This document shows positions 6,386-26,514 of a stretch of 34,366 bases of DNA, one piece after another (positions within the stretch are counted from its first letter, which is position 1; the number at the start of each line of letters is the position of its first letter). The translations under genes and the position numbers were made by a program. Below the pieces are notes generated by a model that worked only from the letters and a program-made list of their open reading frames with translations, ran no database searches and was not told the DNA's origin. Origin of the DNA: a virus (lineage: Duplodnaviria; Caudoviricetes). Where the stretch lies: IMG/VR virus record IMGVR_UViG_3300044698_000197, positions 1 through 34,366 of that record; one strand, written 5' to 3'.

Positions 6386-8455
6386 TCACTCTCCTCGCTT
6401 GATAATCCAAACCCGATCTTTCCCGTCTCTTGCAGCTTTCACCCGATCTGGATATTTCTTTGCCAATCTTCCGAGATACGTCCCGCAAGTTGTCGTCCAT
6501 GTCAACAGTTTCCCGGTCTCATTGTGCGTCTTGCTGTTTTCGTGCAGCTTACTTTCAAGCTCATGAGCCGAAAGCTCGTATTCATTTACAATTGACATTT
6601 CATCTTTGGCAAACAACCCCATATCGATCAGGTCAAGCAGTCGTTTTTCGGGAGATAGCTGGTTTATCTCATTTAGAATATATCGATTGTGATAAAACCC
6701 TACTCCATAACGCTGGTCAACCATGTCTTCAGGTATTATCGACGTTGTCAAAAAATGAGCGAATGCCGGTAGTTGACTCAAAATAGTATTCCAAAATTTT
6801 TTTCTGTCTTCTGTTTTTGCAGTTGGCATCGGCATAGGTTTTTTAAACGCCCTCAATATTATCATTTTTGCTTCGAGACTTTCGTCAATTGGTGGTAGTG
6901 TCAACAGGTTTTCAGGTTCGTCATTGACTGAAATTGACACTCGCCAAAAAGGCTTTAATTCAATTCCTTCTCGGTGCATGGCCCTACATTTGATTCCCTC
7001 ATTTGCCGCCATTTCCTTTATTTTGGATCCGAATGCCCGACGACTGCGGATGTCAGTACTTGGCATTTCATCTTCAATCGGCAAATGTTCAGCACTAAAA
7101 AGATCGCCGTTAAACTCTGTCTGCTCTGTCATGTACTTATATGGCCTTGCTGATCGTCCCCCGAGCATTTCGGTAATTATTTTCTGTAGCAATGATTTTC
7201 CGCAACCGGCAGGACCGGCTAAAACAATAACCTGTCCCGGCCTGAAATCTCCGTTTACAAGAGATTCATACGCAATTTTCAACCAACACAAAAAATAATG
7301 AAGTTGCTTACCGGTTTCATCCTCTTCATCATTGAGTAAATTATCAATTATCTGCATTACCAAATCACAGTTACCCGGTTTAGAATATATTATTTTTGGC
7401 CCATGAGTAATCAATAAACGCTGGTCACCGAGCTGATAAAATCCCGCCTTGTATCCGGCAAGACCACCGACATAATCAACGTCGTGGTTTTCTCTTATAT
7501 CGAGTATTTTAAATTCAACCTCAGACATTTTTTCAAGCCTTGGCTTTGTCTTTTTATATCCGAGATCGATCAGGTTCATTTTAAATTTACCTTCATCAAG
7601 AAGAAGCCATTTCCTTTTATTTTTGTAAAGATATTCTTTTCGTCCTGAATCATAATAAAATTCTATTTTGTCATTTTTTTTGACAGTCTCATACAGCGGT
7701 GCGGAGGCAGCGAGTTCGATAAGTTTTTCTTTTGTTCCGCCGGCTGCAACCCACTCTTCAATATCTCCTTTTTCCGGGAGGTCTGGCAGCTCTAAAATGC
7801 GTAGTGTTTTTGTGCAGTTTTTCAAACTTTCCGCAACTTTAATCGAGTGTTCCCTTCCCGGTGCGTCGTTATCGGGTAATATTACCACGTTCGCCCATGT
7901 CAAACACTCAGAATATTCATCCTTCCATTTCCCGGCACCGTTCGGATTGCAGGTTGCCGTTATGCCCCACCGTTTGTATAAAAAATCGCAGTGCTTTTCG
8001 CCTTCTGGTAGGAATATTAATTCTGATTTTGTAATTGCAGCTTGTATTAAATGTAAATTATATATAATCGGCGTTACGCCGTTGAATCCTTTTTTGTCGC
8101 CCACCATTATGCAGAACGTTTTTTTCTCTCCGGGAATATCAATTCTGACGCTATCGTACTGATAAATGCCGTTTGCATCGAAATATGGAAAGCGAGTGTA
8201 TTTTTTTACTGTGCCTGTGTAAATTTTCTTTGATGGTAAATCAGTTTGAAACAAATCAGATAATTTTAGCCCCATGGCAGAGACTACCGAGTCAATGCTG
8301 CATCCAGCGTGACACCTGACAACGATATTACCGTTTGTGCCGATGCTAACCGACAGGCTGGCATTGTCATCGTTATGAGCTGGACAATGGCACTGTGCGC
8401 CTGTGGCTGTCTTACGCCTCGTTTTTAATCGAGAGATAAAATCGTCAATGTGCAT
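6386..8455 (-). CDS. DNA primase-helicase (zinc-binding domain, TOPRIM, P-loop NTPase)
   Basis: CPAH..D..SLSV..CHAGC; EGEK and ILPDND TOPRIM motifs; Walker A GPAGCGKS. Confidence 0.9.
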   Translation of the reverse strand: MHIDDFISRLKTRRKTATGAQCHCPAHNDDNASLSVSIGTNGNIVVRCHAGCSIDSVVSAMGLKLSDLFQTDLPSKKIYTGTVKKYTRFPYFDANGIYQYDSVRIDIPGEKKTFCIMVGDKKGFNGVTPIIYNLHLIQAAITKSELIFLPEGEKHCDFLYKRWGITATCNPNGAGKWKDEYSECLTWANVVILPDNDAPGREHSIKVAESLKNCTKTLRILELPDLPEKGDIEEWVAAGGTKEKLIELAASAPLYETVKKNDKIEFYYDSGRKEYLYKNKRKWLLLDEGKFKMNLIDLGYKKTKPRLEKMSEVEFKILDIRENHDVDYVGGLAGYKAGFYQLGDQRLLITHGPKIIYSKPGNCDLVMQIIDNLLNDEEDETGKQLHYFLCWLKIAYESLVNGDFRPGQVIVLAGPAGCGKSLLQKIITEMLGGRSARPYKYMTEQTEFNGDLFSAEHLPIEDEMPSTDIRSRRAFGSKIKEMAANEGIKCRAMHREGIELKPFWRVSISVNDEPENLLTLPPIDESLEAKMIILRAFKKPMPMPTAKTEDRKKFWNTILSQLPAFAHFLTTSIIPEDMVDQRYGVGFYHNRYILNEINQLSPEKRLLDLIDMGLFAKDEMSIVNEYELSAHELESKLHENSKTHNETGKLLTWTTTCGTYLGRLAKKYPDRVKAARDGKDRVWIIKRGE

Positions 8456-8463
8456 AGTCGTTT

Positions 8464-8667
8464 TTAAACGGTAAAATTGTTGACGAATTTAGCAGCTTTG
8501 TCGTAGACTTCTTTCGGCATTCTTCGGTTATAGATGTAGTTGTAAATTAGCTGCCGGGAAACGTCAATTTCGTCGGCAACTTCCCGCTGTGAGAGGTGTT
8601 TTCTTTTCATTGTAGTAGCAAGTTCGGATATAGTGGATCCGGTTATCATTTTATAAACTATAGGCAT
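8464..8667 (-). CDS. Cro/XRE-like helix-turn-helix regulator
   Basis: LSQREVADEIDVSRQLIYNY. Start moved to ATG 8667 (GGAG RBS). Confidence 0.8.
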   Translation of the reverse strand: MPIVYKMITGSTISELATTMKRKHLSQREVADEIDVSRQLIYNYIYNRRMPKEVYDKAAKFVNNFTV

Positions 8668-8692
8668 GATTATTCTCCAGGTGTGGTTAAAC

Positions 8693-8710
8693 GCGCCGGT
8701 TTCCCGGCGC
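8693..8710 (-). promoter_or_regulatory. GNRA-tetraloop hairpin (boxB-like or RNA stabiliser)
   Basis: GCGCCGG-GAAA-CCGGCGC in the intergenic gap. Confidence 0.5.
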
Positions 8711-8728
8711 TGCTGATACGGCCGCGAG

Positions 8729-9418
8729 TTACAATTCAACGTTTGCATCAATCCAGATCTTCACTCGCTCGTAAATGTCTTTTCGGAACTCGGTTTTGAT
8801 GCGCCCGAGCGTCGCAATTGCGGTATTTCCGAGCTTTACGGCAAGATCGCTTTCGGTTGTGTTGCCGGTTTCTTTTTGTATCTCCTGGTGAGCCTGGTCA
8901 AGGGATTTTTCCCCTGATTCAATCTGTTTTGCTTTTTCGGGTGATATTTTGAGCACCTTTTTTGCTTTCTTGACAGATGCTGGGGAGACGTTCATTTTTT
9001 TTGCGGCGGCGTTAACAGATGTTTTTTTCTTCGCCGGAGGTTTCAGGGTTGCCGGGTCGGTGGTCGTCGGGTTAGGATCGGCTTTTTCTTCATCCGGTTT
9101 CCCGACAGTCATATCGGAAATTCTTGCGGCGATCATCGCCCGCTGGCTTGCCGACAAGTGACGCCGGTGCAGATTGTGAGACGCGACAAACTGCAACGCC
9201 TCTTCATCGGTGCCGGTGAATATCTTGATTTTCGGCATAACACCGGCAATCTTGCAGGCAGAATACCGGTTTCGTCCGTCAAGAATGTCATTTTGATAAA
9301 TGACAACCGGCTCTTGAAGGCCATTTTTTTTGATGTCTTCGGCCAGCTCCTGCAGTTCCGCTTCCGGCAGCATCGGGAAAATATCGGCATACCGATGCGG
9401 TTTTCGATCTGTGGACAT
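8729..9418 (-). CDS. ParB/Srx N-terminal domain protein with HTH
   Basis: LAEDIKKNGLQEPV...ILDGRNRY..C, NLHRRHL. Start moved to ATG 9418 (GGAGG RBS). Confidence 0.88.
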   Translation of the reverse strand: MSTDRKPHRYADIFPMLPEAELQELAEDIKKNGLQEPVVIYQNDILDGRNRYSACKIAGVMPKIKIFTGTDEEALQFVASHNLHRRHLSASQRAMIAARISDMTVGKPDEEKADPNPTTTDPATLKPPAKKKTSVNAAAKKMNVSPASVKKAKKVLKISPEKAKQIESGEKSLDQAHQEIQKETGNTTESDLAVKLGNTAIATLGRIKTEFRKDIYERVKIWIDANVEL

Positions 9419-9476
9419 AGTACCTCCGTTTTTTTGTGGTTTGAGAAACAACACTATCAATATGTATTAATCCTCG

Positions 9477-9499
9477 ATTAAAAAAAAGATTATTTTTTT
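9477..9499. repeat. 23-bp element with an inverted copy at 3275-3297
   Basis: ATTAAAAAAAAGATT(A/G)TTTTTTT, 22 of 23 identical; both copies lie in promoter regions. Low complexity. Confidence 0.5.
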
Positions 9500-9573
9500 A
9501 AGGTAGTTATTTTGTAGCTGTAAGTCATTGATTTTTATGGTGATATTTTTTATAAAAATAATTGTTTTTTTTG

Positions 9574-9602
9574 TTGAATATCATATTACGATAGTGTATA
9601 TT
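9574..9602 (+). promoter_or_regulatory. Putative sigma70-like promoter for the plus-strand cassette
   Basis: TTGAAT-N17-TATATT, followed by an AGGAG RBS and ATG 9644. Confidence 0.6.
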
Positions 9603-9643
9603 ATAAGATCAAGCAGAACAAACCAAACCAAACAGGAGGAAAA

Positions 9644-9856
9644 ATGAAACGAGCAATCCAGTACAAAAACGGTAATGGTGATACGACCTCGGTCAGTGTT
9701 AACGATCGTAATCAAGCCGACATACACTCGGTCCGGGTTGCTGTGCGCCGTATATCCGGCCCCGTTGGTGATCGGATCGTGTTGTCCGCCGACGACCGCA
9801 AAAACGGCGAAATAACGGTATATGACGGACAAACGGCGGTAATGATCATTGCGTAA
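9644..9856 (+). CDS. Hypothetical early protein
   Basis: Strong AGGAG RBS; downstream of the promoter. Confidence 0.8.
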   Translation: MKRAIQYKNGNGDTTSVSVNDRNQADIHSVRVAVRRISGPVGDRIVLSADDRKNGEITVYDGQTAVMIIA

Positions 9857-9866
9857 CAACTAACCA

Positions 9867-9880
9867 GCCCGGCAACGGGC
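9867..9880 (+). promoter_or_regulatory. GNRA-tetraloop hairpin (boxB-like)
   Basis: GCCCG-GCAA-CGGGC; no U-tract after it. Confidence 0.5.
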
Positions 9881-9897
9881 ACAGAACGGAGCGATTT

Positions 9898-10062
9898 ATG
9901 ATTCCCTTCATAGTTCCTGGAGTTTTTTTTCTGATAATAATTTTCCTGTTTTTATTCTGTACTGTGAAGAAAAAACCTGTCAACAGTCAAGTAGAAACAA
10001 CCTTCGACCGTGACCGAATCGTCGCTCATAGAGACAAAAAAACACTCATCATCCCGGAGTGA
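9898..10062 (+). CDS. 54-aa single-pass membrane protein
   Basis: Below the track cutoff; GGAG RBS; MIPFIVPGVFFLIIIFLFLFCTVKKK. Confidence 0.65.
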   Translation: MIPFIVPGVFFLIIIFLFLFCTVKKKPVNSQVETTFDRDRIVAHRDKKTLIIPE

Positions 10063-10065
10063 AAA

Positions 10066-10254
10066 ATGAAAAACACAACTGATTGCTGGCTGTCCTGTGA
10101 ATGGGATAATTCAAAAGAGTTGGTAAGGTGTCGGAAATGTCAAGAAATACCTGATAAAATTTACTACCGACAGGACAAGCCAGGCTCAACCACGGGCGAT
10201 TACTGGTGCCGGAAGTGCGCCGAAACGACAGAACAGGAGATTGTTGATGAATAA
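10066..10254 (+). CDS. Small zinc-ribbon protein
   Basis: CRKC...CRKC; GGAG RBS. Confidence 0.7.
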   Translation: MKNTTDCWLSCEWDNSKELVRCRKCQEIPDKIYYRQDKPGSTTGDYWCRKCAETTEQEIVDE

Positions 10255-10465
10255 AACTATAGAGATAATCCGCTTTTTGCGGCATAATCCGATGTCTTCG
10301 ACTTCGGAAATATTACTACATGTAAATATTTCTCAAGCCGGTTTCTATCGACACAAGAAAACCGCACTTAAAATTCTTGGTGTTGAGATATCTTTTTCTA
10401 CCCATGGCAATAATCAAGGGTACGAAATAACCTCTTACGGTATCATAGATAGGTACAAATTATGA
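10247..10465 (+). CDS. Winged-HTH-like protein
   Basis: STSEILLHVNISQAGFYRHK...LGVEI...GYEI, resembling an HTH_11-type domain; start at ATG 10247. Confidence 0.65.
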   Translation: MNKTIEIIRFLRHNPMSSTSEILLHVNISQAGFYRHKKTALKILGVEISFSTHGNNQGYEITSYGIIDRYKL

Positions 10466-10638
10466 TAAAAGCTGAAATAACCGGAAGAAAACAAAACTTG
10501 TATTCAGCAATAAACACACCGAGGTTTTGCGGGAACTGTGTTTATTGCGGAAACAATTGTATGAAAACTGCAAAATGTCAAGCTTGTTACTCTTCAACCG
10601 ATCCTAAAAAGCCACATTATAAGAGAAAAAAGTTATAA
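10462..10638 (+). CDS. 58-aa Cys-rich protein
   Basis: Below the track cutoff; ATGA overlap; CGNCVYC...CQAC. Confidence 0.6.
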   Translation: MIKAEITGRKQNLYSAINTPRFCGNCVYCGNNCMKTAKCQACYSSTDPKKPHYKRKKL

Positions 10639-10670
10639 GGCAGACTTTAAAATCACTTAGTGGGGAAACG

Positions 10671-10790
10671 ATGCAGGAACTAAACCAGATTGCAAAAGCC
10701 ATTGCATCCATCGAAAGAATCATTTCTGAAATGGATGAGCAGATCAAAAAAAACGAAGCTGTCTTAGGCGTCATTCACGAAGAAATTTGA
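10671..10790 (+). CDS. 39-aa coiled-coil-like micro-ORF
   Basis: GGGGA RBS; MQELNQIAKAIASIERIISEMDEQIKK. Confidence 0.45.
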   Translation: MQELNQIAKAIASIERIISEMDEQIKKNEAVLGVIHEEI

Positions 10791-10793
10791 ATG

Positions 10794-11597
10794 TTATATT
10801 TTTGCCACCCATCGAGTGTCATCAATCCATTTCATTTCCGCTTTCATTTGACGCGCTTTACAATAGTCGTAGAGCGCGTCGAATACTGAGCTATATGCAT
10901 GGCCCATGACAAGGCGTCCAATCAAGCCGCGCTTACGTATGGCCTCGGAGCGTACCTTCGGTAGCTTAAGTTCAATTCCAACGTGTTTCAGCAGTGGTAT
11001 TCCTACCGAGTCAACCAAATCGTTGTACATAACTGGCCGAACAGTAACCGATCCAAGCACGGATTTGTCATATTCGTCCGCTGCCGATGCAATGAAAACC
11101 GGTGGGGAGCAATATGGTATAACACGTTTAGGCATTGCCCCGAGTTCACGAAGTGCCCACCGTGCAGCCGGAATAGTTCGGTTTCGCGAATGTCCAATAA
11201 TGTAAAAACCATCACGGTATTTGTCTATTTTATCGGCAAAAAACCTTGCAGCGTGTTCTCCCGCTTTGATAAAATCGACGTGTCCCCCAAGCTCGTAATA
11301 TTCTGGCCGCTCGATCTGCGGTGAAAAGTCAGAAACCCAACCAGGTTCAAAAAGTCCTCCTTCGGTCCCTAGGTTGGCAATCAGCAGTTTTCCTTCATGC
11401 TCGATCGAATACGAAAAGTCAAGCTTTGATGATATCGGCATCTTCGTAACTACTGCACTGGGGAGCCACTTTTCAACCAGGTCATCGATGTAGTCGAACC
11501 GGTCGCCGTCGCCGTCGCCTGAATCTTCTTTGTGTCGCGCCGCAAGTGCAACATAAGGAAAGAAATAGGCTACATCCCACATGTTAATCTTATTCAT
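10794..11597 (-). CDS. Class-3 lipase-like alpha/beta hydrolase
   Basis: Motifs in the expected order: LGTE, H..F, IIGHSR (Ser), YCSPPV, NDLV (Asp), HVG, HAY (His). Confidence 0.75.
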   Translation of the reverse strand: MNKINMWDVAYFFPYVALAARHKEDSGDGDGDRFDYIDDLVEKWLPSAVVTKMPISSKLDFSYSIEHEGKLLIANLGTEGGLFEPGWVSDFSPQIERPEYYELGGHVDFIKAGEHAARFFADKIDKYRDGFYIIGHSRNRTIPAARWALRELGAMPKRVIPYCSPPVFIASAADEYDKSVLGSVTVRPVMYNDLVDSVGIPLLKHVGIELKLPKVRSEAIRKRGLIGRLVMGHAYSSVFDALYDYCKARQMKAEMKWIDDTRWVAKI

Positions 11598-11839
11598 TTT
11601 TTCCCCACTGCATTCCGAAGTCCATCTGCACCGATTTTAAGCCCGACAAAGGCCATGGCAAAACCGACGGTCGTAAGCCAACCAGGAAGAGAGATCGTCA
11701 ATCCTGCCCCTGCTGCTGCAGCGGGGAAGGCAACTATCGCCCCTCCTGCGGTAGTGAGCCATGATCCGACTTTAGACCATGAGATTGTACCGTCTTCACG
11801 GAGCAGAGTTTTTGCCAGTGTTTTTTTTAGTGCATTCAT
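11594..11839 (-). CDS. Holin-like protein with two hydrophobic segments
   Basis: Start moved to ATG 11839 (GGAGG RBS, ATGA overlap); basic C-terminus; lysis position. Confidence 0.6.
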   Translation of the reverse strand: MNALKKTLAKTLLREDGTISWSKVGSWLTTAGGAIVAFPAAAAGAGLTISLPGWLTTVGFAMAFVGLKIGADGLRNAVGKK

Positions 11840-12084
11840 TTGAATTCCTCCAGTGTATCGGTTGAGGTTACGCGCCATTTTCCATTTTCGCGGACAATCC
11901 AATCAACTATGGTGCCACTGTTAGCTGACCGGAAAAGGGTACATGTGTCTACCGTCATAGGGATTACTGCCGGTGCCAATGCTCCGGGAGATATCATCAC
12001 GCAGCCCGGAGAGCAAATAGCGACAACCAGTAATAGTATTGCATAGGTAACCACAATGATTATTCCGGCGATTGCTGTTTTCAT
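11836..12084 (-). CDS. Membrane-anchored or lipoprotein-like protein (possible spanin component)
   Basis: Long N-terminal hydrophobic helix followed by CSPGC. Confidence 0.5.
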   Translation of the reverse strand: MKTAIAGIIIVVTYAILLLVVAICSPGCVMISPGALAPAVIPMTVDTCTLFRSANSGTIVDWIVRENGKWRVTSTDTLEEFK

Positions 12085-12455
12085 TTAATAGCCGCCTTCA
12101 ACAGTATATTCACTTTCTCATCAACACCGTTTATATGCTCTTTCAGATCGGCCCTAGTCTCAGATATTGCTCGTTGTAAAGCTTCAATGTTTCCGTGACA
12201 ATCGGCCCTCAATACAAATTCTGATCTTTTCGGTATGCTTTCAAGGGTTTCTATGGCGTCGGACAATGATTTTTGTAGGACGTTAATATGTGCATTAGAA
12301 TCGGATCTTGAAACGAAAGAGGCACGACTCGAAAACATCTCCTTCATCGCCCCGCTTTTCCAGAGCGTGAAAATTACAAATGCGAGTATTACGTACTGAG
12401 GGCCATACGAACCAAGCATTTTAAATATTTCTGCCAGTTCCTTCATGATCTCCAC
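12081..12455 (-). CDS. Holin-like protein (N-terminal transmembrane helix plus coiled coil)
   Basis: YVILAFVIFTLW, then a heptad-rich region. Confidence 0.55.
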   Translation of the reverse strand: MEIMKELAEIFKMLGSYGPQYVILAFVIFTLWKSGAMKEMFSSRASFVSRSDSNAHINVLQKSLSDAIETLESIPKRSEFVLRADCHGNIEALQRAISETRADLKEHINGVDEKVNILLKAAIK

Positions 12456-12491
12456 TTTCTCCTCTTATTCCATGCCCATTGTTTTGAGCGT

Positions 12492-12529
12492 CGCAGCATT
12501 TCGGCCCCGGTTGCTGCATCGGTCCGGGG
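12492..12529 (-). ncRNA. Candidate H-type pseudoknot upstream of the lysis cluster
   Basis: CCCCGG/CCGGGG and GCAGCA/UGCUGC stems are interleaved. Confidence 0.5.
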
Positions 12530-12540
12530 TCACTTTTGAT

Positions 12541-12825
12541 TTACCAATCCTCAGTAGTTACAGCTTTTTTCGCTTCCATTTCTTCCCACCGTCGAACCTT
12601 TTTACTCAATTCGTCAATAACAACAAATCTTGACCACTGCAACGCTGTACATGAGTCCACCCATACCGGATTCTCTTCGGTGCCAGTATTAATCTGAGGA
12701 ATAGGTCGGAATCCGCACACTGCAGACGAAAGCCTGCTTGCCTTATTTGCTGTCAGGTTGATGGTGAGCGTTACCTGTGCGGTAGCGGCAAACGATAATA
12801 GTAAAACAACAATCATATTTTTCAT
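12541..12825 (-). CDS. Exported small protein with signal peptide
   Basis: MKNMIVVLLLSFAATA|Q, a typical AxA cleavage site. Confidence 0.75.
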   Translation of the reverse strand: MKNMIVVLLLSFAATAQVTLTINLTANKASRLSSAVCGFRPIPQINTGTEENPVWVDSCTALQWSRFVVIDELSKKVRRWEEMEAKKAVTTEDW

Positions 12826-13043
12826 TTCCGTTTATTCCAGTCTATGCGAGTTATTTTGCCGCGCTTCTGGATTACGGGCACGTCGTATTTTTTCTCATTC
12901 GCAAACGTTCCGACGTCGTACTCGGTAACGGTTGCAGTTACTTTATGACCTGTTCGAACGATGTTTCGTTCCTGAACCCTGGTACCGTTAATCGAGATAA
13001 ACAGTGCGAAAACTACAATTAATAATTTCAATTTGTCCCCCAT
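12822..13043 (-). CDS. Small protein with signal peptide or N-terminal anchor
   Basis: MGDKLKLLIVVFALFISING; overlaps neighbours at both ends. Confidence 0.65.
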   Translation of the reverse strand: MGDKLKLLIVVFALFISINGTRVQERNIVRTGHKVTATVTEYDVGTFANEKKYDVPVIQKRGKITRIDWNKRK

Positions 13044-16000
13044 GTTATAGATGTTCCGTATAATGTAATATACTCTGAAAAAAAGGTTGAAGCGTCTGGT
13101 GTTTCAGATAATTTAAACGAACTGACGGTGCCATCGTGGTAGAGCGTCGCTTTCATTGGTCCCGAAGACGACTGCAGTACATCAACAGTATAATACTGTC
13201 CAATACCAGCGCCATAAAAACCACTACTTGGCAAACGAATGTAAGCGGTAGAATCCTCGTCAATTATTCCTGATAATGTTGGTAGTTTAACCGTAAAAAT
13301 AGCTCCAGATCTGGCAATTTTCCCGGTACCGGCCGATACAAAACGTGTTCCTGAAAATAACGAGCAGGCCACATTTGCAGATGTAATATAGTGTCCAATT
13401 GAATCATCAAAATTTGAATTATTCAACTTCGTTCCAAGTTGCGTTTGTATAGATGAGGTAACCCCGCTCACGTATCCTATTTCGGTAGATGTTGTAGCTG
13501 AAGAAACAAGCCCCTTACTCGGATCAGTTACTACCGCCCTCAAGGCTGTAAGAACGTTAGAAGTTATTTTTCCTTTTGCCGTAAAATTGCTATCGAATGT
13601 TACAAGGTTTGTCGATACCGTAAATGGTGCATCACCTATTTCATTAGTCGCAGTAAACATGGTACCTCTATTTGCCGTGCCCGATCCGCTTATGTTTGCA
13701 AAGGACGTTCCGTAACCGTACAGGGTGCCGTTTATCCATAAGGAATCCTGCCGTGTCTCAATGGTTGGAACTGTGTTTGTACCACCAACCCCGCTGCCGA
13801 TCTTAACACTTCCTGTTGACGGCTGCAATGTTATATTTCCGGTATCGAGCACGACGATTGTAGCGTTTGCTTTGTTTACTACAAACTGTGCCCCCTTAGC
13901 TGTCTTGATATCCCAATAATCAACAATGTCGTTATAAACTCCTTTTCTCACGGCACCGGCAAAGCTTCCAGCGGCATAGGTGTGGATATAATCGGAGTCG
14001 CTGGTCGCCCCAAAGTTGCTTACAAACGAACCGTTCATTGAATATGTCACCCCACCATCATTGCTTCCCCCGTAATTATTACCGATATAGGCTATTTGAG
14101 GTCCAGAATCAGTAGTTGCATTGCCACTGCCATCAACAAACCCCTGTAGTATTAAGCCGCCTGATCCTTTTTTACCAATTGTAAAAGGCGTGTCGTTGTC
14201 TGCAGAGTATAGATACCTTGGAATTGTCACGTCCCCGGTAGTGCTGTCGTATAGTATTCGTGCGGAGTTTATTTTGTTTGCGCTCTTGAAGAATGATAGC
14301 CTTCCTGGGGTACCGCTTATGTAACTTGCTACTGAATCATCAAAATCACTTTTCGGTAATTTGGTCCCGGCAACGTACAAGGCGTATGAAGAGTCATTAA
14401 CGAATCCGGTGTCGGAACCAGCCGGGTAGGTTGTCAAGGTGTCTCCAAGTCCATTAAGGATAGTCGCCGTTGTGCCCGTTCCAAAGGTGTGGTAATGGAT
14501 TTCAACCGGCACCTGATCAACATAGCTCAATCCGCATTGTATCCACAATTGTATAGTATCGGGATTGCTTGCTGATTTTTGGAGTAACACAGCATTGGAA
14601 AACGTTTTTCCGGTCGCTGTCGTATTTACATTGTCAATTTTTAAATAGCGTTCACTCCACAGTGCTGTTGCTCCATGTTTAACAGATGCCATTAAATTCT
14701 GTTGCCTGTAACCAGGATCAGCCCTTCTTCCATACGAACGTAAGTCAATCAAGCAGTTGGCATAGTTACCATTTAAAACAACGGTAGCAGCTAAAAACCA
14801 TTTATTTAAAACTAACCCGCTTGATCCTCCCAATGCACCCCACAAAACATAGGCATGATTATTGTATGATCCGTAATCGTAGTTAAATGGTATTTTACGT
14901 GTACTATCAGAAAGTGTCGCCGTATCAACTCGCGAGTGCTTATGTAAAGCAGTGTATCCAGCGTCGGTTAGATCGGTATGGCTTGTAGCTGTCAGGTGGG
15001 TGTAATTCGCGCTGTTAAGATTGTTCAGGTTGGCATGGTCTTTATATTTTCCGAGAGTATCAGCGTGTTTATCGAGGGAATCTCTTACCCATCCGTTCCC
15101 TACAGTATCGTAGTATGATTTTGTCAAACCTCCAAGCCTTGCTGCACCTCCGGCACTGTCTACACGCATAGTAGTTGACAACCGTTTTTTCAAAGTCCCC
15201 GCACTGTCAATAACAACGGTATCCATACCGCTCGTCGGTATGTTTTCAATATTTACCGTTCCACCGGTAAAATTATGGTTCCCGGTTCCAATAAGACGGC
15301 TGTTATAAATTGCATTTGATCCATCGTAGGAATACCCGGCATCGCCGGCAGCTCCGACAGTTACGCTTTTGTTGTCTGCGAGTATATTTAAATTACCCTT
15401 GACAACATTATCAGCGGTCCCATTGCAGTATATATTATAATTTGTTGCTGCATACGCATTATTCAGATAGACACCATAATTATTAGTGCCAACACTTTGA
15501 GCATCGACACGCAATCCATAAGTGTTTGTTACAGCCCCTCCACCACTATTTGTCATGGCAGAAATCCAGTCACCCGCCAAGTTAGTTATGGTACCTGCAC
15601 CCAAATTACGAATATCATATTTCGCTCCGGCAAACCATGTTGTTGTGCCTGTATTATAATTAAAGGCGCTACAGTCAAGAGCCTTGCAGCCCTTGGCACT
15701 TGTTGACCCTTGAGCCCCGTAATATTTGAGCGCCATCTGTAAGCCTATCGCCTGAAACAATGCTACATTATCATTTATTGGCGAGCACCCAAAATAGCCC
15801 GCAATATCCTGTGCTTCACTAACCACTGTCGGCTCAAATAAAACATTTAGTTTGATTAAACTATTATAAGATGATGCACCGACGCCTAAATTTCCAACGA
15901 AATTTGCATAGTTGGTTGTCGTATTGATATATAATATGCCCGTAGTCCCATCGGCTTTTGTAATTTGTATGGCTGCTGCTCCATCTGAGGCCGGATACCA

Positions 16001-16468
16001 TCTCGGTCCGCGCAGGCCCAGATTGAAAAGTGGAGCTCCGTTGACAACTGTTTGCGGAGTAGTCTGATCAAGCCTGAGAAACAAACCGTTTTGAGCACCA
16101 TCACCTACCGTATCCCAATAAGTTGTGTCATGCCCGCCGAGGCGGTAAGAGTTCCAGGATAATGCCGACACCCTTACTGAATCAGGAGTATTTAGGGCTG
16201 TATCTGCTACGTGTGAAGCTCGAACACTGTCCGGGGTATGTAGTGCCGTGTCCGCTGCTCCTGCCGCCCTTGCAGAATCAATACTTCCTATCGTAACCCC
16301 GAGAGAATCAACCTTGACAAGCCCCATGGTATCGCCGTCAGCGTTAAAGCCGACGACATAAACAGGGCTGTTTATTGTATCTTTGTTAAGCAGTAAAACT
16401 TTCCCGAAGTGCCTGTCAACAGGAAATACTGCAAACGAAATGGATAATATTAGCGCAAAGATTTTCAT
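13028..16468 (-). CDS. Large mosaic tail-fibre/adhesin-like protein with N-terminal signal peptide
   Basis: G/T/S/N-rich beta-type modules; a fibre-like EIGYVSGVTSSIQTQL segment; position after the tail gene; MKIFALILSISFAVF N-terminus. Confidence 0.7.
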   Translation of the reverse strand: MKIFALILSISFAVFPVDRHFGKVLLLNKDTINSPVYVVGFNADGDTMGLVKVDSLGVTIGSIDSARAAGAADTALHTPDSVRASHVADTALNTPDSVRVSALSWNSYRLGGHDTTYWDTVGDGAQNGLFLRLDQTTPQTVVNGAPLFNLGLRGPRWYPASDGAAAIQITKADGTTGILYINTTTNYANFVGNLGVGASSYNSLIKLNVLFEPTVVSEAQDIAGYFGCSPINDNVALFQAIGLQMALKYYGAQGSTSAKGCKALDCSAFNYNTGTTTWFAGAKYDIRNLGAGTITNLAGDWISAMTNSGGGAVTNTYGLRVDAQSVGTNNYGVYLNNAYAATNYNIYCNGTADNVVKGNLNILADNKSVTVGAAGDAGYSYDGSNAIYNSRLIGTGNHNFTGGTVNIENIPTSGMDTVVIDSAGTLKKRLSTTMRVDSAGGAARLGGLTKSYYDTVGNGWVRDSLDKHADTLGKYKDHANLNNLNSANYTHLTATSHTDLTDAGYTALHKHSRVDTATLSDSTRKIPFNYDYGSYNNHAYVLWGALGGSSGLVLNKWFLAATVVLNGNYANCLIDLRSYGRRADPGYRQQNLMASVKHGATALWSERYLKIDNVNTTATGKTFSNAVLLQKSASNPDTIQLWIQCGLSYVDQVPVEIHYHTFGTGTTATILNGLGDTLTTYPAGSDTGFVNDSSYALYVAGTKLPKSDFDDSVASYISGTPGRLSFFKSANKINSARILYDSTTGDVTIPRYLYSADNDTPFTIGKKGSGGLILQGFVDGSGNATTDSGPQIAYIGNNYGGSNDGGVTYSMNGSFVSNFGATSDSDYIHTYAAGSFAGAVRKGVYNDIVDYWDIKTAKGAQFVVNKANATIVVLDTGNITLQPSTGSVKIGSGVGGTNTVPTIETRQDSLWINGTLYGYGTSFANISGSGTANRGTMFTATNEIGDAPFTVSTNLVTFDSNFTAKGKITSNVLTALRAVVTDPSKGLVSSATTSTEIGYVSGVTSSIQTQLGTKLNNSNFDDSIGHYITSANVACSLFSGTRFVSAGTGKIARSGAIFTVKLPTLSGIIDEDSTAYIRLPSSGFYGAGIGQYYTVDVLQSSSGPMKATLYHDGTVSSFKLSETPDASTFFSEYITLYGTSITWGTN

Positions 16469-18186
16469 TTACAAGACTCCTCTAACATTTTCAAGCGATC
16501 GCTAAGCTGTTTGATGTGGACTGCCTGTATTTCGACAACCTCCCATAGTTTTTGTATCATTGCTCCGGTCGAAGGAATATTGCCGGTGCTCTCAACATCC
16601 TCGAAGGTCGGCAACATTTTCCTTGATGCGATAAACTCGTTATGCTTGTCAATGTCAAGTATCCAATCTGCCCGTTTCTCAAACTCTTCTGAGTGTACAG
16701 GATTTTTCTTTTTCCAGTCAGCAAGGGTATAATCCGGATTGAAAGCTTTGTCAAGGACATATCCAGTCAACAGTATGTTGTCATCGTAAATAGCAACGGC
16801 GTTTATCGTCCCGGCTCCCTTCCCGCCTCCAGTGGGAGCACCAACCACAAACGACCCGTCAGAGCCGAAATATCCGCGTTCAGTACCTTGTAGCGTTACG
16901 GCGTCAGCTGCGGTATAAAAGCCTATTTTTGTTGCTGCATTTTTTGTGCTGTCGCTTCCACCAATGGCAATAACAGCATTTCCGACAGCGTTATCATATC
17001 GCAACACAGTGGTATTTTCTTCATCGGTATCGTATGCCGGGGCTGAAACAGAGGCAACTTTCTCGGTGTCGTCTGTTCTGGTGGCCGCTCCAACGTCGGC
17101 ACCTATCACAATGCCGTCAGAAGTACCGCTTTGCATATTTACATCTGCGCGAATATCTGCCCCAGCCGTTCCGTATATTTCCTCTTGCACTGTAAACGAT
17201 CCGCTTTGAAAATTTACAGCCCCGGCAATATCTGCACCGGCTTCACCGACAATTTGTCCATTAACGGTTAGAGAGTCGTAAACTTCTGTTTCGTAAAGAT
17301 ATTTTGTTTTTGTGTTAGTCAAAGCAGAAAAAACTGCAGTAGTAATAGGATGGCTTGTTATGTCCTCCCCAAACCATGCGGGGTAAAGCTCGTTTACATT
17401 GAGAACTGGAACAGAACCTACTCCGCAGTTGAAATGTTCTGTTTTGTCGTTTTTGTCAATAACGACATCGATCACAGGGCTAAAATCACCATATCTGAAC
17501 TGAGCAGAAGGAAGTAATTTTATTTTACACGTAAGCGTCGGGTTGGTTTCGATATATATCGAACTGTCAATAATAATTATACAACCGTTCGTGTCGCACC
17601 AATCATCACAAGCCTGCAACTCTGAAACGTCGCCGGTTACCCCGTCGCAAACAGCGCCGAATACCCGAACGTTCATTTCTCTGTTGAAAGGTAACATTGC
17701 CAACCATCTACCGGTAGCAGGGAGACTGTCTGGCTGTATGGTGCCTCCTCCGTCGTCGGTTGCTGTTGAAGTCGCGTCCCAATGGTACCACCATCCACCG
17801 CCATCATTTACGGTATGGTAACCAAGCGTTTGTACAATAGGAAATTCTCCGGCAGCAAGAGCGCGCAAATCGTCTACAGTGTCAACGTTTGTGGTGTTAT
17901 TGAGGGAGTTGATACCCTCAACTGTTGCTATAAGGTTGTCATCGGCATCATAAACGTAAAAATCATACGGCCCGGCCTGTAGGAATATCGGCCCGGCGTC
18001 AGGCATGCCCGAGGCGTCAAGGTCAATGGGGTTGTCGTAAGGAGTGGTACCGGCAGCATCGCTGTAGGTAGCCTTGTCGTTACTGGTTCCGGCGTACCTG
18101 GTTCTGATGTAACCACCGGCAAGCGGATCTCCGTTTCCGTCACAAAACTGCTGATAAAACCACGGTGAAGAAAATACAGTCGGCAT
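16465..18186 (-). CDS. Tail spike/fibre protein with virion-binding N-domain and chaperone-like C-terminal coiled coil
   Basis: QF.DGNGDPLAGG...TYSDAAGT...NPIDLDASG; GY...NDGGG; NVRVFGAVCDGV; C-terminal QKLWEVVEIQAVHIKQL. Confidence 0.78.
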   Translation of the reverse strand: MPTVFSSPWFYQQFCDGNGDPLAGGYIRTRYAGTSNDKATYSDAAGTTPYDNPIDLDASGMPDAGPIFLQAGPYDFYVYDADDNLIATVEGINSLNNTTNVDTVDDLRALAAGEFPIVQTLGYHTVNDGGGWWYHWDATSTATDDGGGTIQPDSLPATGRWLAMLPFNREMNVRVFGAVCDGVTGDVSELQACDDWCDTNGCIIIIDSSIYIETNPTLTCKIKLLPSAQFRYGDFSPVIDVVIDKNDKTEHFNCGVGSVPVLNVNELYPAWFGEDITSHPITTAVFSALTNTKTKYLYETEVYDSLTVNGQIVGEAGADIAGAVNFQSGSFTVQEEIYGTAGADIRADVNMQSGTSDGIVIGADVGAATRTDDTEKVASVSAPAYDTDEENTTVLRYDNAVGNAVIAIGGSDSTKNAATKIGFYTAADAVTLQGTERGYFGSDGSFVVGAPTGGGKGAGTINAVAIYDDNILLTGYVLDKAFNPDYTLADWKKKNPVHSEEFEKRADWILDIDKHNEFIASRKMLPTFEDVESTGNIPSTGAMIQKLWEVVEIQAVHIKQLSDRLKMLEESCK

Positions 18187-18494
18187 TATTGTCTCCTTCT
18201 CAAATACGGCATCTGGTACGGTCCGGATTGTTGATTGTTCTGTTGTAAAGAATTCACGGTACCGGCAATGTTTCCGATTGTTTGAACAGTGTTCATGGCG
18301 TTACCGCGAGGCTGCTGCTGTCCGCCTGCCGGTTGCAGTCCTTGAAGCGTCCCGAGACTACCTTGCTGCTGCGGTTGCTGTCCTCCGGTACCATCACCAT
18401 ACCCCTGCGGTTGCGTTATCGGCTGCTGTCCACCGCCTTGGCTGTTTGCTGATCCGATAGCTGAGATTATCGCTAAAATTGCTGGTAGTGCCAT
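18186..18494 (-). CDS. Q/G-rich small virion protein (putative ejection-associated)
   Basis: GAGG RBS; TAATG overlap with the tail gene. Confidence 0.65.
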   Translation of the reverse strand: MALPAILAIISAIGSANSQGGGQQPITQPQGYGDGTGGQQPQQQGSLGTLQGLQPAGGQQQPRGNAMNTVQTIGNIAGTVNSLQQNNQQSGPYQMPYLRRRQ

Positions 18495-18496
18495 GG

Positions 18497-20398
18497 TTAC
18501 CTCTTCTTATTTTTGTTTTTTGCAGCCGCGCCTATTGTCAACGCTCCACCGGCTCCGGCTGCGGTTCCGGCCATTATCCCTACATTGTGGAACATGGCAA
18601 CGGGTGATCTCGGAACGCTTGCAAGTTTTTCTGCTTCTGCTCTTGTAACAAAATTACCTTTTTTGTCAATAAACCCTACGTTGTTTGTGGGCTTGTTTGT
18701 GTTGTCAAGAAAATGCTGGTATTTAAGCCTTTCTTGAATTGCCGAACTTTCGCCTTTGACAATTGCGTCTTTATGTCAGCGCCATCCACCGGTATATATT
18801 TTCCCTGTTTGCGGATCACGGATCGCCGGGGTTCCGACAAGGTCATCTGATACGCCGCCTATTGCACCGGTTTTATTTTTCAGGATGGATGGCTTTTTGC
18901 TGGTGGCAAGCTCGCTGATAGTAGAGTATTTTTTTTTGCCCTGCAGTATCTTACCCGTCTTAATCAATGCCGAAGCCCCACGAGCATCGCCGACTATTTT
19001 TTTCCCAGCCAACATTGCACCCGGAGCACCTGCCGCCATTGCCGGTAATCCTACGTTATGCGCCAGACTCGGGCCTCCAAAAATCAACGCCAGATCGGTA
19101 ATGCCAAGTACGTTTCTGTTACCTGCAAGTTTTTGAGCTTGTTCCATTGCCTCTTTTACGGTAATTAGATCGTGTACTGCTTTATTTGCGGTAATAACTT
19201 CAGGTATTCTATCCCCAAGCTCTTTGTTAAGTCTTAAATACGACAATTCACCTATTTTTGAAGGAAGAGGATCAATTTCAATGCTTTTTGAACCTTTTTT
19301 AAATAGGTTCATTCCTTCATCAATCGTTCTTTTGATTTCAGGAAGCTTTGAAACCGGTTGAATACCGTCAAGCTTTCTTCTGTTAAGAGCATCGCCGATA
19401 CTTAACGCAATTTCAGCAGCCTTGTCTTCATTCAAAAAAATAGACTTCTCTTTACCTTTTGTAATATCGTCGGCAAGCTCTAATATTGTTTTGTCAACAT
19501 CTACGGTTGCGGTAGGATTTTTCTTAGAAAAACTTGAAATGGCGTCTTCGGCTCTGTTCATTTCCGAGTTGATTCTCTTTTGTGCTTTTTCGGCGATACC
19601 CTTAAACCCGCCGCGCACAGATTCAACATCATACTTTGAAATGTCATCGGTTATTTTTTGGACACCCTTGAGAGGGTTTTTCCCGGCGAGCTTTGCAATT
19701 GAGTCCCTGATTTTTGCATCACGGGCTATAATGCTTTTTCCTGCACCTTCGAGAGCTTTTCCAGTGCCTTTTGTCGCTTTCACCGCCGTACCAGGAGCAC
19801 CGATTGCGCCGCGAACACCGAGAGCTTCAATTCCTGCTTCGGTGGCGGTAATATTGGCCTGTGCCGCTGGAGATTGTTTTTCTTTCCATCCTTTATATTT
19901 CCAGGCAATGTTTCCGATAAAATCACCAACCCCGGTATTTTTTGCTGCACTTGACAACGCCTTACCAGCACGACCACCGGTTGCAGCGTTTGCAAGGTTC
20001 ATTCCGATACCTATCGGTACCCCGGCAGCGTCGGCAACGCTCCCCACGCCACCGAGAACAAGGCGAGATGCGCGTTCAGGAGTCCCGGCAATAGCGTCGG
20101 CCACAGATCCAGGTTTTGCCCCTACAGCGTCCCCGAGAGCGGTAGGAGCGTACACTGCGTCGGATCGTTTTTGAAGGCGGTCGGCAAAATTTGAAAAGGG
20201 CTGTTCGATGTTTTTCTTGAAGAATCCCGATTCTTGCTGTTGAAGGGTTTCACGTGAAACCTGTTCTGGTTGTTGCTCCTGCTCGAATACCTGGTCGTCA
20301 AACCCGCCCGAAGCCTCGATGGAATCGTAAACTTTACGAATTTCTTCTTTTGGCTTCCCGGCTGCAATTGCTTGCTTGATAAAATCTTCACGTTTCAT
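18497..20398 (-). CDS. Ejection/DNA-transfer protein interrupted by an in-frame TGA at 18776-18778
   Basis: The 540-aa ORF continues in frame for 92 more codons to TAA 18497-18499, two bases before the next ATG. A/G/K-rich; third gene of the ejection cluster. Confidence 0.75.
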
Positions 20399-25033: not shown

Positions 25034-25726
25034 TCAGTACCCTGTATTAATATTAAATATACTACCATTTCGACCGGAAAAAATGAATTTAATTGGCATA
25101 GGACGCTTTTTATTGCTTGATCGTATCAAGTCAAGAGTTTCCATGGCCTTGGCTATTACAATTTGATTTATCTGCACGTCTGGAAACTCAGGAGACATTG
25201 AAATCGCAAGATTGTAGATAAGTGCCGATATGTAGCCCTTTGGCAATTCAACATCGACAGTAAGGTTTGTGCAAGGAGTAAACATTCTGCTGTTAAGAAT
25301 GGTTACCGTTCCAGCCTCTGACGGGACCGGGTACAGTTTTACCGTTCCAGTAAGGTGTGAAGGTGTATATGTCAAGTACTCAGGAATACTCGATGTGTCT
25401 TTAACATCGATATCCATGTACTCTCTTTCGGGGATAATTGTAAGCGGGTAATCAACTCCCTCAATGGTTGTAAATGCCGCTTCAATTGATAGTGGCTTGT
25501 TTCCATCCCATGTTTCTCCGTCCCCGACCGAATATGAAGCAGTTCCGGCAACCGAGTCAAATGTCTGCTGTTCGGTGAGCGCAAGGTCAGTGTCGTTTTC
25601 CCATTCATCAAGCAGCATATTAAGAGCGGTTTTTCCGTCGGTCTTCATCTGAGCCGACAACGTTTCACCTTCACCGGCAATCCCGAGCTTACGATATGCA
25701 GCGGTAATCAGTTCGAGGTAAGTCAT
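25034..25726 (-). CDS. Head-to-tail adaptor (P22 gp4-like)
   Basis: LITAAYRKLG...LNMLLDEW, LYPVP, ALIYNLA. Confidence 0.8.
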   Translation of the reverse strand: MTYLELITAAYRKLGIAGEGETLSAQMKTDGKTALNMLLDEWENDTDLALTEQQTFDSVAGTASYSVGDGETWDGNKPLSIEAAFTTIEGVDYPLTIIPEREYMDIDVKDTSSIPEYLTYTPSHLTGTVKLYPVPSEAGTVTILNSRMFTPCTNLTVDVELPKGYISALIYNLAISMSPEFPDVQINQIVIAKAMETLDLIRSSNKKRPMPIKFIFSGRNGSIFNINTGY

Positions 25727-26514
25727 TTTTTAGTTCCGTTCTCTTTGAGATAATCGGAAAAACGCCCACGCTTCGGCAGAGTACCGAAGTGAATAAATTC
25801 AATTGTGGGATCACAATACACTTTTATACCGCAGGCGTTACACAGCTTGCAAAACCAAACATCTTCACCGTAATACCTGTTGTCAAGCCCTGTGAATGGG
25901 TGATTGATGTCAACAGTTACCGAAGCATCGTGAGCCATTCCCCGGTACTTTCTCACCTCGTTAACTAGTCGGAGAATTGTGTCCTCATACATTGCCGTTT
26001 GCCCGGTTGCGAAGAACTGATACACGCCTTTATCATCAACCAGGTGCGGGTATTTATCCGCGAGCGTTTCAATGGTTTTTCGGGTAATCCGCATAAACCC
26101 GGTAGGGATATGTTGACTCTCAATAAGCTTGAGCTTGAAGTCGGTTACCGGATAGTTGTTCTTGTCAAGCTTTATATCTATAGGAAATCCGTGGTCATCT
26201 ATTTCCCGGTAAGGGTACGCACCGCCGATAACGTCAACAGGCTGCTCAAGAATCTTTATCATTGCATCATATTCAAAGGCAATGTCGGCATCAATGAAAA
26301 GCAGATCGGTAAACGACCCGTCCATAAATTGCTTTACGATCTTATTTCGGTTGAGATCGAGGTACGCGCCCTTGATCTGAGCCGTAAACGAAACATCATA
26401 CCCTTTGAGCTGTAAAGAATTGATGTTGTTAAACAGTGACACCATTGTGTTGACGCACACTTTACTGTCGTAAGCCGGTATTCCTATCAAAATACTGCGA
26501 TTGTTTTTTTTCAT
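25723..26514 (-). CDS. GT-A fold glycosyltransferase
   Basis: IGIPAY, RNKIV, LLFIDADI (DxD), TGFMRI, GEDVWFC, H.G. Confidence 0.85.
   Translation of the reverse strand: MKKNNRSILIGIPAYDSKVCVNTMVSLFNNINSLQLKGYDVSFTAQIKGAYLDLNRNKIVKQFMDGSFTDLLFIDADIAFEYDAMIKILEQPVDVIGGAYPYREIDDHGFPIDIKLDKNNYPVTDFKLKLIESQHIPTGFMRITRKTIETLADKYPHLVDDKGVYQFFATGQTAMYEDTILRLVNEVRKYRGMAHDASVTVDINHPFTGLDNRYYGEDVWFCKLCNACGIKVYCDPTIEFIHFGTLPKRGRFSDYLKENGTKK

Follow-up and report, generated by a model that had tools for sequence, protein, structure and literature searches.

The window, by which we mean the whole analysed stretch of 34,366 nucleotides (IMG/VR record IMGVR_UViG_3300044698_000197), belongs to an uncultured P22-like podophage. 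Among cultured phages the 1146-aa fibre found a single weak match, capsid identity did not exceed 30%, and neither the 83-aa family to which the 94-aa gene belongs nor the lipase-like gene was matched. The genes discussed here are listed in Table 1. The start of the fibre ORF, which begins with the residues quoted in an earlier, sequence-only reading of this DNA, overlaps the stop codon of the 573-aa spike gene (ATGA), so the two genes are coupled. The same reading described two further coupled genes with signal-like N-termini downstream, and both proved to be coupled and to open with hydrophobic segments according to a heuristic rule.

Table 1. Features of the fibre cassette and its surroundings (positions in the window)
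Feature	Positions	Strand	Remark
Lysis-position genes past the cassette, encoding a pair of small membrane proteins, one lipoprotein-like and one lipase-like product	10794..12455	-	
94-aa leader-bearing member of a ~83-aa phage family that is mostly leader-less	12541..12825	-	
73-aa coupled gene, hydrophobic N-terminus	12822..13043	-	no homologue seen
Mosaic fibre protein, 1146 aa, signal-like leader, 25 sequons, C-terminal knob	13028..16468	-	
Predicted receptor-binding knob, residues ~1021-1146, folded like the heads of reovirus sigma1 and of lactococcal/Listeria phage RBPs	13031..13408	-	
Short module, residues ~964-1017, behind most of the best 150 database matches, mainly to leader-less fibre-like proteins	13418..13579	-	
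Second sequon cluster, residues 416-523, 8 motifs (1.3 expected)	14900..15223	-	
Predicted intertwined homotrimeric beta-helix, residues 164-429, nearly sequon-free, common to leader-less phage proteins	15182..15979	-	
N-terminal low-complexity stretch, residues 30-121, 10 sequons (1.0 expected), including short repeats	16106..16381	-	
Sec signal peptide (predicted), first ~16 residues, cut after residue 13 or 16	16421..16468	-	heuristic
Leader-less tailspike/fibre, 573 aa, N-terminal domain as in tailspikes of cultured podophages	16465..18186	-	

Signal peptides were called by a crude charge/hydropathy rule combined with alignment, and this heuristic errs: 3 of the 13 flagged members of the 94-aa family carry no extension at all, so that the 13 labels on the tree include three false positives and the count of changes derived from it was discarded. 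In the fibre family, a basic n-region followed by a hydrophobic h-region at the true start made the heuristic positive in all eight members. The hydrophobic N-terminus was expected to be kept in homologues, and it is present in 7/7 close ones, the starts being unlike in sequence; six of these seven also show an excess of the glycosylation motif described below. In the window fibre, Pro precedes the conserved mature start, and the source run offers no alternative letter at this site; three homologues have Ser there. Contigs of that run left about 13350-15150 uncovered, a gap from which nothing follows. Because Pro occupies the usual -1 site, cleavage must move to the alternative site present after residue 13, leaving a short 13-residue leader, or it may fail. 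The latter outcome would suit a model in which the leader, cleaved late or not at all, tethers the glycosylated fibre to the inner membrane on its periplasmic side, to be taken up by crossing particles or left with membrane fragments. The lipase-like gene at the lysis position speaks for such a tether, as does the conserved hydrophobic 13-residue leader of the terminase large subunit, which suggests membrane-associated assembly. We nevertheless consider the model very unlikely, as ordinary small residues precede the mature start in the homologues and the hydrophobic stretch is too short for the 19-residue membrane-span test, which it fails. The terminase large subunit must act in the cytoplasm, and since it has such a leader too, hydrophobic leaders in this phage lineage do not all prove export.

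The fibre ORF contains 25 D-[S/T]-[AILVMT] motifs (2.2 per 100 aa), compared with 6.16 ± 2.32 in shuffled sequences, and none of 2000 shuffles reached 25. The earlier hand count of about 25, with 10 in the first ~120 residues and none in residues 125-410, turned out to be right, and the motifs are distributed as described: 10 in residues 30-119, none in 120-415, eight in 416-521, and seven further on. The motif-free gap at 125-410 alone is not significant (0 vs 0.82 expected). The suggested enrichment relative to both shuffled sequence and other virion proteins also held, at around four times chance in the fibre and at chance in the others: 12 other virion-module proteins pooled have 15 motifs against 14.6 ± 3.6, and the 34 remaining ORFs of the window that were tested show no enrichment (lowest p 0.16). 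The excess depends on Asp: z is 7.9 for D and does not exceed 2.1 for any of the 19 remaining residues, and E-[ST]-x stands at 0. It persists when two short internal repeats are left out (21 vs 5.8). As described in the available text of a 2025 review (PMC12871550), O-glycosylation at this motif takes place on non-cytoplasmic proteins, and Glu is not accepted in place of Asp. The predicted export signal together with the fourfold motif excess make it likely that the fibre is matured and sugar-coated outside the cytoplasm.

The motif excess follows the leader among related proteins. Of 151 proteins sharing a module with the fibre, 12 of the 33 with a leader and none of the 118 without one show the excess (Fisher 1.9e-9), counts that are not independent because 11 of the 12 enriched proteins belong to one family. 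Unrelated leader-bearing proteins of sister phages are motif-rich as well, with six motifs in 125 aa (L004), six in 129 aa (L046) and three in 179 aa (L086). These observations bear on the simplest alternative, an ordinary cytoplasmic fibre in which the hydrophobic start serves structure or regulation and the D-[S/T]-hydrophobic triplets are turn-forming or capping elements that repeats have multiplied. The hydrophobic start of the cytoplasmic terminase and the location of part of the motifs within short repeats would fit that explanation. It appears quite improbable, however, given that the D-specific excess outlasts repeat removal, is missing in 118/118 leader-less proteins and recurs in the unrelated small leader-bearing ones, and that the leader of the 94-aa protein directly precedes a sequence that is a complete family member without it.

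This 94-aa protein belongs to a family in which 35 of 45 members have no leader and start at the predicted cleavage site. It is likely a co-exported fibre accessory protein or chaperone. Its AlphaFold monomer is of low confidence (pLDDT 62), and neither it nor the 73-aa protein contains a canonical sequon. A metagenome scan with the 94-aa alignment recovered at least six loci; L048-L050, among the matches listed from the metagenome, and L052 and L053 from viral scans were rejected as relatives since they look like chance matches.

Residues 164-429 of the fibre, for which trimer modelling had been proposed, are predicted to form an intertwined trimer. The model scored 0.94 (best of three controls 0.00) against a mark passed by 20/30 solved pairs and 1/23 single chains, a two-copy calibration that is unlike the trimer job, and the score may owe to resemblance to solved fibres. 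Contacts agreed between runs at 97% or more, with pLDDT of at least 91. The predicted C-terminal knob matched the sigma1 head (Foldseek E 4.7e-5), Zav_19 (Z 10.1, rmsd 3.1, 122 aligned) and the bIL170 RBP head (Z 7.8), as well as the PSA gp15 head; the model of residues 890-1027 is of low confidence. The 1146-aa protein is thus predicted to be a trimeric tail fibre that carries a receptor-binding knob and lacks an anchor. The window fibre (P0001) itself gave no PHROG, Pfam or PDB sequence match (PDB to E 1), and its homologues P0004, P0006 and P0007 match PHROG tail fibre or spike families. The mature N-terminus differs among family members, and no docking domain common to the family was found.

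Relatives of the fibre were searched for more widely. Scans of viral contigs with a single fibre or 94-aa sequence gave none, and alignment queries were needed. The short DQTTPQT module was rejected as a family marker because of its generic nature: an ORF lies at the match in 34 of 37 viral loci, four of these were flagged as leader-bearing (the flag of L020 looks false), and only L004 is sequon-rich. A scan of a genome collection returned four weak matches, all to this module, and no host. Matches in the ESM Atlas were all below 0.9 and therefore serve as leads only.

As to the host, SD-like motifs precede 17 of the 29 genes in the window, against a background of 13%, which speaks against Bacteroidetes/Chlorobi and agrees with Fibrobacterota. 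Sigma70-like promoters occur at chance level (26 vs 20.6 ± 5.3, positions 8000-20000), as does the Bacteroidota promoter pattern; not being above chance, both were left out of the host inference. The proposed FCB host outside Bacteroidota therefore stands on SD usage and the published motif distribution, while the sigma70 argument for it falls away. Together, the two remaining lines make Fibrobacterota the likely host phylum. The available text of the O-glycosylation review reports similar motif enrichment in Fibrobacterota, the enrichment alone being given for that phylum, and leaves open whether its members glycosylate the D-[S/T] motif (PMC12871550).

Trimeric phage fibres and RBPs are synthesized in the cytoplasm and attach to the virion by an N-terminal domain. 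The window fibre resembles them (the heads of bIL170, p2 and TP901-1, Listeria PSA gp15, Dettilon gp208, R-pyocin tips) in its predicted beta shaft and knob and in closing the tail operon, but it opens with an export-type leader followed by a variable, sequon-rich, low-complexity base. Mycobacteriophages reportedly modify capsid and tail-tube proteins with their own glycosyltransferases; the window fibre would likewise carry glycans on a tailed-phage structural protein, except that a host periplasmic system would modify it after export. It shares D-[S/T]-[AILVMT] motifs in a predicted non-cytoplasmic protein with the general O-glycosylation substrates of Bacteroidota, as far as these are described in the available text (PMC12871550), and differs in being phage-encoded and in its likely Fibrobacterota host. 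No paper describing exported or glycosylated tail fibres was found in listings of openly accessible literature; the word 'phage' is absent from the main text of the review (PMC12871550), as are 'signal peptide' and 'glycosylat' from that of the crAss001 structure paper (PMC10172136), in the text available of each.

A further parallel is provided by the MAT fibres of Bdellovibrio bacteriovorus, which also combine a signal peptide with a mosaic, intertwined trimeric beta-helix shaft, the latter predicted in the window. According to PMC10769870, MATs form a cellular family of 21 members; a domain of ~130 aa is conserved behind the signal peptide, the adhesive tips vary and are related to phage fibres, and 13 members have S74 chaperones. 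The window, in contrast, has a single late gene, of a phage, whose product combines a sequon-rich base with a predicted sigma1/RBP-type knob, and which is accompanied by a small, putatively co-exported protein. Fibre genes of the window family stand singly in late operons of phages (the window, L004 and L046), so they do not constitute a cell-encoded multigene adhesin family.

The fibre could be exported and glycosylated and never join the particle. It would then stay in the periplasm or be released, masking or sequestering the receptor at lysis, for which T5 Llp is the comparison case, or be displayed on the infected cell. Export keeps the fibre apart from cytoplasmic particles, the family lacks an identified docking domain, and the window phage retains a leader-less spike; moreover, cellular MATs show, in the text available, that signal-peptide trimeric fibres can work at cell surfaces (PMC10769870). 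On the other hand, the fibre has no transmembrane segment beyond the leader and no lipobox by inspection, its gene belongs to a coupled run of late structural genes where the promoter signal does not exceed chance, and the window yielded no integrase. In the siphophage G001 the same cassette supplies the only long fibre gene. This genome has direct terminal repeats, in spite of which CheckV puts its completeness at 65%, and small receptor binders might be encoded by two of its tail genes that lack annotation (150 and 174 aa); a 466-aa ATPase-like gene of its early region with a weak 'tail fiber' match (E 0.002) was dismissed as coiled-coil noise. In another phage, L054, a leader-bearing gene follows the adaptor, and its identity as a nozzle was not confirmed by sequence.

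Also against a fibre kept off the virion, the Cellulophaga phage phi18:3 (Pachyviridae) has leader-bearing proteins in its particle proteomics. Its gp085, gp086 and gp087 are, as in the window, consecutive fibre/depolymerase-like genes with Sec-type, signal-like starts directly ahead of lysis-region genes, and the record (KC821620) annotates them as structural from MS/MS on particle preparations, which may include co-purifying proteins. Unlike the window fibre, they have one motif each and no excess, and they are non-homologous to it (no BLASTP match at E 0.01); their phage has a Bacteroidota host and no SD usage (2/30 genes). No paper remarking on their leaders was found. The sequence-only reading had left the choice between virion and cell surface undecided; taken together, the evidence leans towards the virion, given a trimeric knobbed fibre without anchor, a coupled late operon and the role of the cassette as the only long fibre of G001, and we regard a fibre that stays off the particle as unlikely.

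The sequence-only reading of an exported, glycosylated module is thus supported, except that no homologue corroborates the 73-aa gene as a part of it, and from the data we infer export, glycosylation and virion binding. Export of the 1146-aa protein is very probable, and export combined with glycosylation is probable; the full route, Sec export, O-glycosylation in the periplasm and docking on the virion at lysis, is the reading we moderately favour. The fibre is encoded in a coupled late operon, from which it would be translated, and the leader would send it, along with the 94-aa accessory protein, into the periplasm. There, a Bacteroidota-type O-glycosylation system of the likely Fibrobacterota host may decorate the flexible base and linker, where selection would have multiplied the sites now seen as an excess. 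The shaft is predicted to trimerise and the knob to be directed at a receptor. Once lysis opens the inner membrane, the mature N-terminus would bind a part of the tail assembled in the cytoplasm; the simplest candidate for this docking platform is the 573-aa spike. As this second spike/fibre is leader-less, the exported fibre is not required as the only adhesin. Homologues of the lipoprotein-like and lipase-like genes adjoin the cassette in L004. Candidate purposes of the glycan are solubility, protease shielding and avoidance of re-adsorption to host glycans.

Tailed-phage particles are, in the textbook view, assembled entirely in the cytoplasm. A broader proposal, which we hold at even chances, is a two-compartment assembly in which heads and tail cores are cytoplasmic and receptor-binding modules (the fibre and its accessory protein, with further tail parts in some lineages) have acquired Sec leaders on several occasions, fold in the periplasm, are glycosylated by the host and are joined to podo-, sipho- and myo-type particles at lysis. 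To this the window adds a likely non-Bacteroidota host, a cassette common to a podophage and a siphophage, and the gain of a leader by an accessory protein. It is now testable whether the leader-bearing proteins of the cultured phi18:3 are processed and virion-bound, and whether Fibrobacterota glycosylate the D-[S/T] motif. If the proposal is true, the window would extend the two-compartment route to a likely Fibrobacterota host and provide phage-side evidence for Bacteroidota-type O-glycosylation operating in that phylum. Pipelines that call signal-peptide genes non-structural would mislabel virion parts, and recombinant receptor-binding proteins of such phages would need periplasmic expression. 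Virions would bear a host-made glycan coat on their organ of host recognition, and therefore the last host could affect adsorption, stability and range.

The phage is a P22-like podophage with a linear genome of 34,366 bp (93% by CheckV). Its minus strand encodes the terminase subunits, a P22-type portal, scaffold, coat, adaptor and head-closure proteins; needle and ejection proteins, read by position, come next, followed by a 573-aa spike/fibre, a 1146-aa protein (the fibre), two small genes and the lysis-position genes. No close relative was found among cultured phages, capsid identity being at most 30%. Both sequencing runs listed for the window, one possibly its source, are sediment metagenomes.

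The fibre contains 25 D-[ST]-[AILVMT] motifs (sequons), compared with 6.16 ± 2.32 in shuffled sequences, where 25 was reached in 0/2000. The sequence-only reading had proposed a signal-peptide-bearing, sequon-rich and possibly periplasm-matured, glycosylated protein, and its motif counts were borne out on this recount. The excess is specific to Asp (z 7.9), the Glu version being absent, and it persists when repeats are removed (21 motifs vs 5.8). No enrichment was found in the 34 other window ORFs tested, and 12 other virion-module proteins show no excess (15 motifs vs 14.6). Motif clusters lie at residues 30-119 and 416-521; the motif-free stretch is by itself not significant. According to the available part of PMC12871550, Bacteroidota O-glycosylation modifies this motif in non-cytoplasmic proteins only, and Glu is not tolerated in the B. 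fragilis motif.

A basic-hydrophobic leader of varied sequence is present in all seven close homologues of the fibre, and six of them have a sequon excess, the exception (P0005) having a leader and 1 motif. Among 151 module-sharing proteins, a crude rule flagged a leader in 33; sequon-rich proteins (z over 3) made up 12 of these 33 and 0 of the 118 leader-less ones (Fisher 1.9e-9, a value that exaggerates independence, since a single family supplies 11 of the 12). Sister phages have small, unrelated proteins that also bear a leader, and in these the motif occurs 6 times in 125 aa, 6 times in 129 aa and 3 times in 179 aa. The residue preceding the conserved mature start is Ser in the homologues P0002, P0004 and P0016 and Pro in the window fibre, with no variant at this site in the source contig; cleavage would thus have to occur after residue 13 or may be inefficient. 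A membrane-tethered fibre is one reading of such a leader, and a very unlikely one; no membrane span was found downstream of it.

The large terminase subunit also begins with a hydrophobic leader of 13 residues, which is translated and coupled to the stop of the small subunit. The related locus L003 keeps this leader, differing by 6 synonymous changes and a single conservative one (Val/Ile), and 13 of 13 other terminases inspected are without it. TTG/GTG at codon 14 may serve as a second start giving the normal form, and the packaging motor is possibly membrane-tethered or two-form. Hydrophobic leaders in this phage are therefore not proof of export by themselves, a point on the side of a cytoplasmic fibre in which the motif is structural; on the other side stands the association of sequons with leaders, and we regard this reading as very unlikely.

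The fibre itself, a mosaic built from modules of fibres, had no match in family and PDB sequence searches. Database representatives matching it number 1563 at E 0.001 or better, and the best 150 of these mostly share its residues 964-1017 or 200-365. Its homologues P0004, P0006 and P0007 match PHROG tail fibre or spike families, and P0007 has a module in common with the window's own leader-less spike (E 8e-12). Modelled in three copies, residues 164-429 scored 0.94, whereas the best of three controls scored 0.00; at least 97% of contacts agreed between runs, and pLDDT was at least 91; the score mark was reached by 20/30 solved pairs and 1/23 single chains in a calibration with two copies, and resemblance to solved fibres may account for the pass. 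In the model, chains touch one another at offsets of 13-14 residues, which suggests that the shaft is an intertwined triple beta-helix. The last ~125 residues have the predicted fold of the knob of viral attachment proteins, resembling the heads of reovirus sigma1 (E 4.7e-5), Zav_19 (Z 10.1, rmsd 3.1, 122 aligned), Dettilon gp208 (Z 8.4), bIL170 RBP (Z 7.8) and PSA gp15 (Z 6.9).

The 94-aa protein encoded downstream, inferred from gene position to be an accessory or chaperone, belongs to a family of 45 proteins found by profile search. Of these, 35 lack an N-terminal extension and align with it from the first residue past its predicted cleavage site; for the L047 member, a stop lies in frame five codons upstream, too close for a leader to fit. 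Eight of the ten leader-bearing members, the 94-aa protein included, form one group (support 100/100), and the other two fall among leader-less proteins in the unrooted tree; L054 has an additional one. The simplest reading of this unrooted arrangement is that leaders were gained repeatedly. In L055 a member without a leader comes immediately after the C-terminus of a fibre whose start is cut off. In the database protein P0197 this 83-aa family is fused behind a fibre-like C-terminal motif, which could reflect a genuine fusion or the loss of a stop codon. No homologue was seen to corroborate the 73-aa gene.

The fibre and its small neighbours form a cassette that passes from one morphotype to another. 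The closely related L046 contains a spike-like end, a fibre of 1226 aa with 29 motifs, a 98-aa homologue, a leader protein of 129 aa and lysis genes. The same cassette is present in G001, a 42.8-kb siphophage with a major tail protein, tape measure and direct terminal repeats (65% by CheckV despite these repeats). An ORF survey of G001 revealed no long fibre gene besides that of the cassette; two unannotated tail genes (150 and 174 aa) could encode small binders. In neither the window nor G001 could an endolysin be recognised. Further features are listed in the table.

Coordinates of the cassette and other features in the window and related loci
Feature	Location	Observation
Fibre	window 13028-16468(-)	
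94-aa gene	window 12541..12825(-)	
73-aa gene	window 12822..13043(-)	unrelated gene in place of the 125-129-aa leader protein, which the window lacks
Spike	window 16465..18186(-)	
Terminase large subunit	window 31654-33114(-)	
Terminase leader	L003:306-344	
Terminase Walker A region	window about 32990-33000(-)	Trp at two positions, mostly small residues in relatives; L003 same
125-129-aa leader protein	L004 (in G001):12863-13240; L046:4434-4823	6 sequons; conserved in these cassettes
179-aa leader-bearing gene	G001 L086:13605-14144(-)	3 sequons; adjoins HTH regulator, outside structural operon
Leader-bearing fibre	L005:9275-12009	no sequon excess; baseplate-wedge phage; second leader gene follows
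Leader-bearing fibre	L016:3671-7378	no sequon excess; unrelated phage fragment
Structural-region genes with signal-like starts	L054:1977-13291	156 aa, about 141 aa, 1067-aa fibre, 498-aa beta-helix, 112-aa small-family member; one polytopic membrane protein; signal-like start also in gene after SU10-type adaptor (candidate nozzle by position); no evident sequon excess by eye
Lipase-like gene, lysis position	window 10794-11597(-)	
Lipase-like gene, lysis position	L004:14397-15131	weak Lipase_3 match, E 0.01
Lipase-like gene, lysis position	L046:5110-5919	DUF5675 gene in addition
phrog_1574 gene and SAM methyltransferase (PF08241)	window 25723-27011(-)	between coat and adaptor; phrog_1574 gene glycosyltransferase-like by eye; similar genes in L001, L058, L062; possible phage-encoded particle modification, apart from host system

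SD-like motifs precede 17/29 genes in the window, 11/20 in G001 and 5/8 in L046, compared with 2/30 in phage phi18:3 and a background of about 13-15%. In the available parts of the sources, SD is described as absent in Bacteroidetes and Chlorobi and present in Fibrobacteres (PMC3155529), and motif enrichment in Fibrobacterota as resembling that in Bacteroidota (PMC12871550). SD usage and this enrichment together make Fibrobacterota our best guess for the host from sequence, other SD-using FCB groups being also compatible; promoter scans were uninformative.

We lean towards a reading in which the fibre and the 94-aa accessory would pass through Sec, the fibre would be glycosylated and trimerised in the periplasm, and it would dock on the cytoplasmic particle once the membrane is permeabilised. 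A precedent for late docking is P22, whose tailspikes attach to completed heads spontaneously. A fibre that is exported and not virion-bound is a rather unlikely alternative, favoured by the presence of a leader-less spike in the same phage; no docking domain was identified in the fibre. As to known systems, gp085-087 of phi18:3 resemble the window fibre in their signal-like starts and are marked structural from MS/MS in the record, but they are not homologous to its family and have one motif each. The fibre would work like a tail fibre, yet its predicted export leader departs from the cytoplasmic synthesis that is canonical for such fibres; it is built like the Bdellovibrio MAT fibre, as described in the available part of PMC10769870, yet is not a MAT. 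A search of the openly available literature turned up no account of tail fibres that are exported and glycosylated by the host. The leader-bearing, sequon-rich fibre is a real feature, and its pairing of leader and sequons is the outcome expected if selection came from host machinery that acts on proteins after export.
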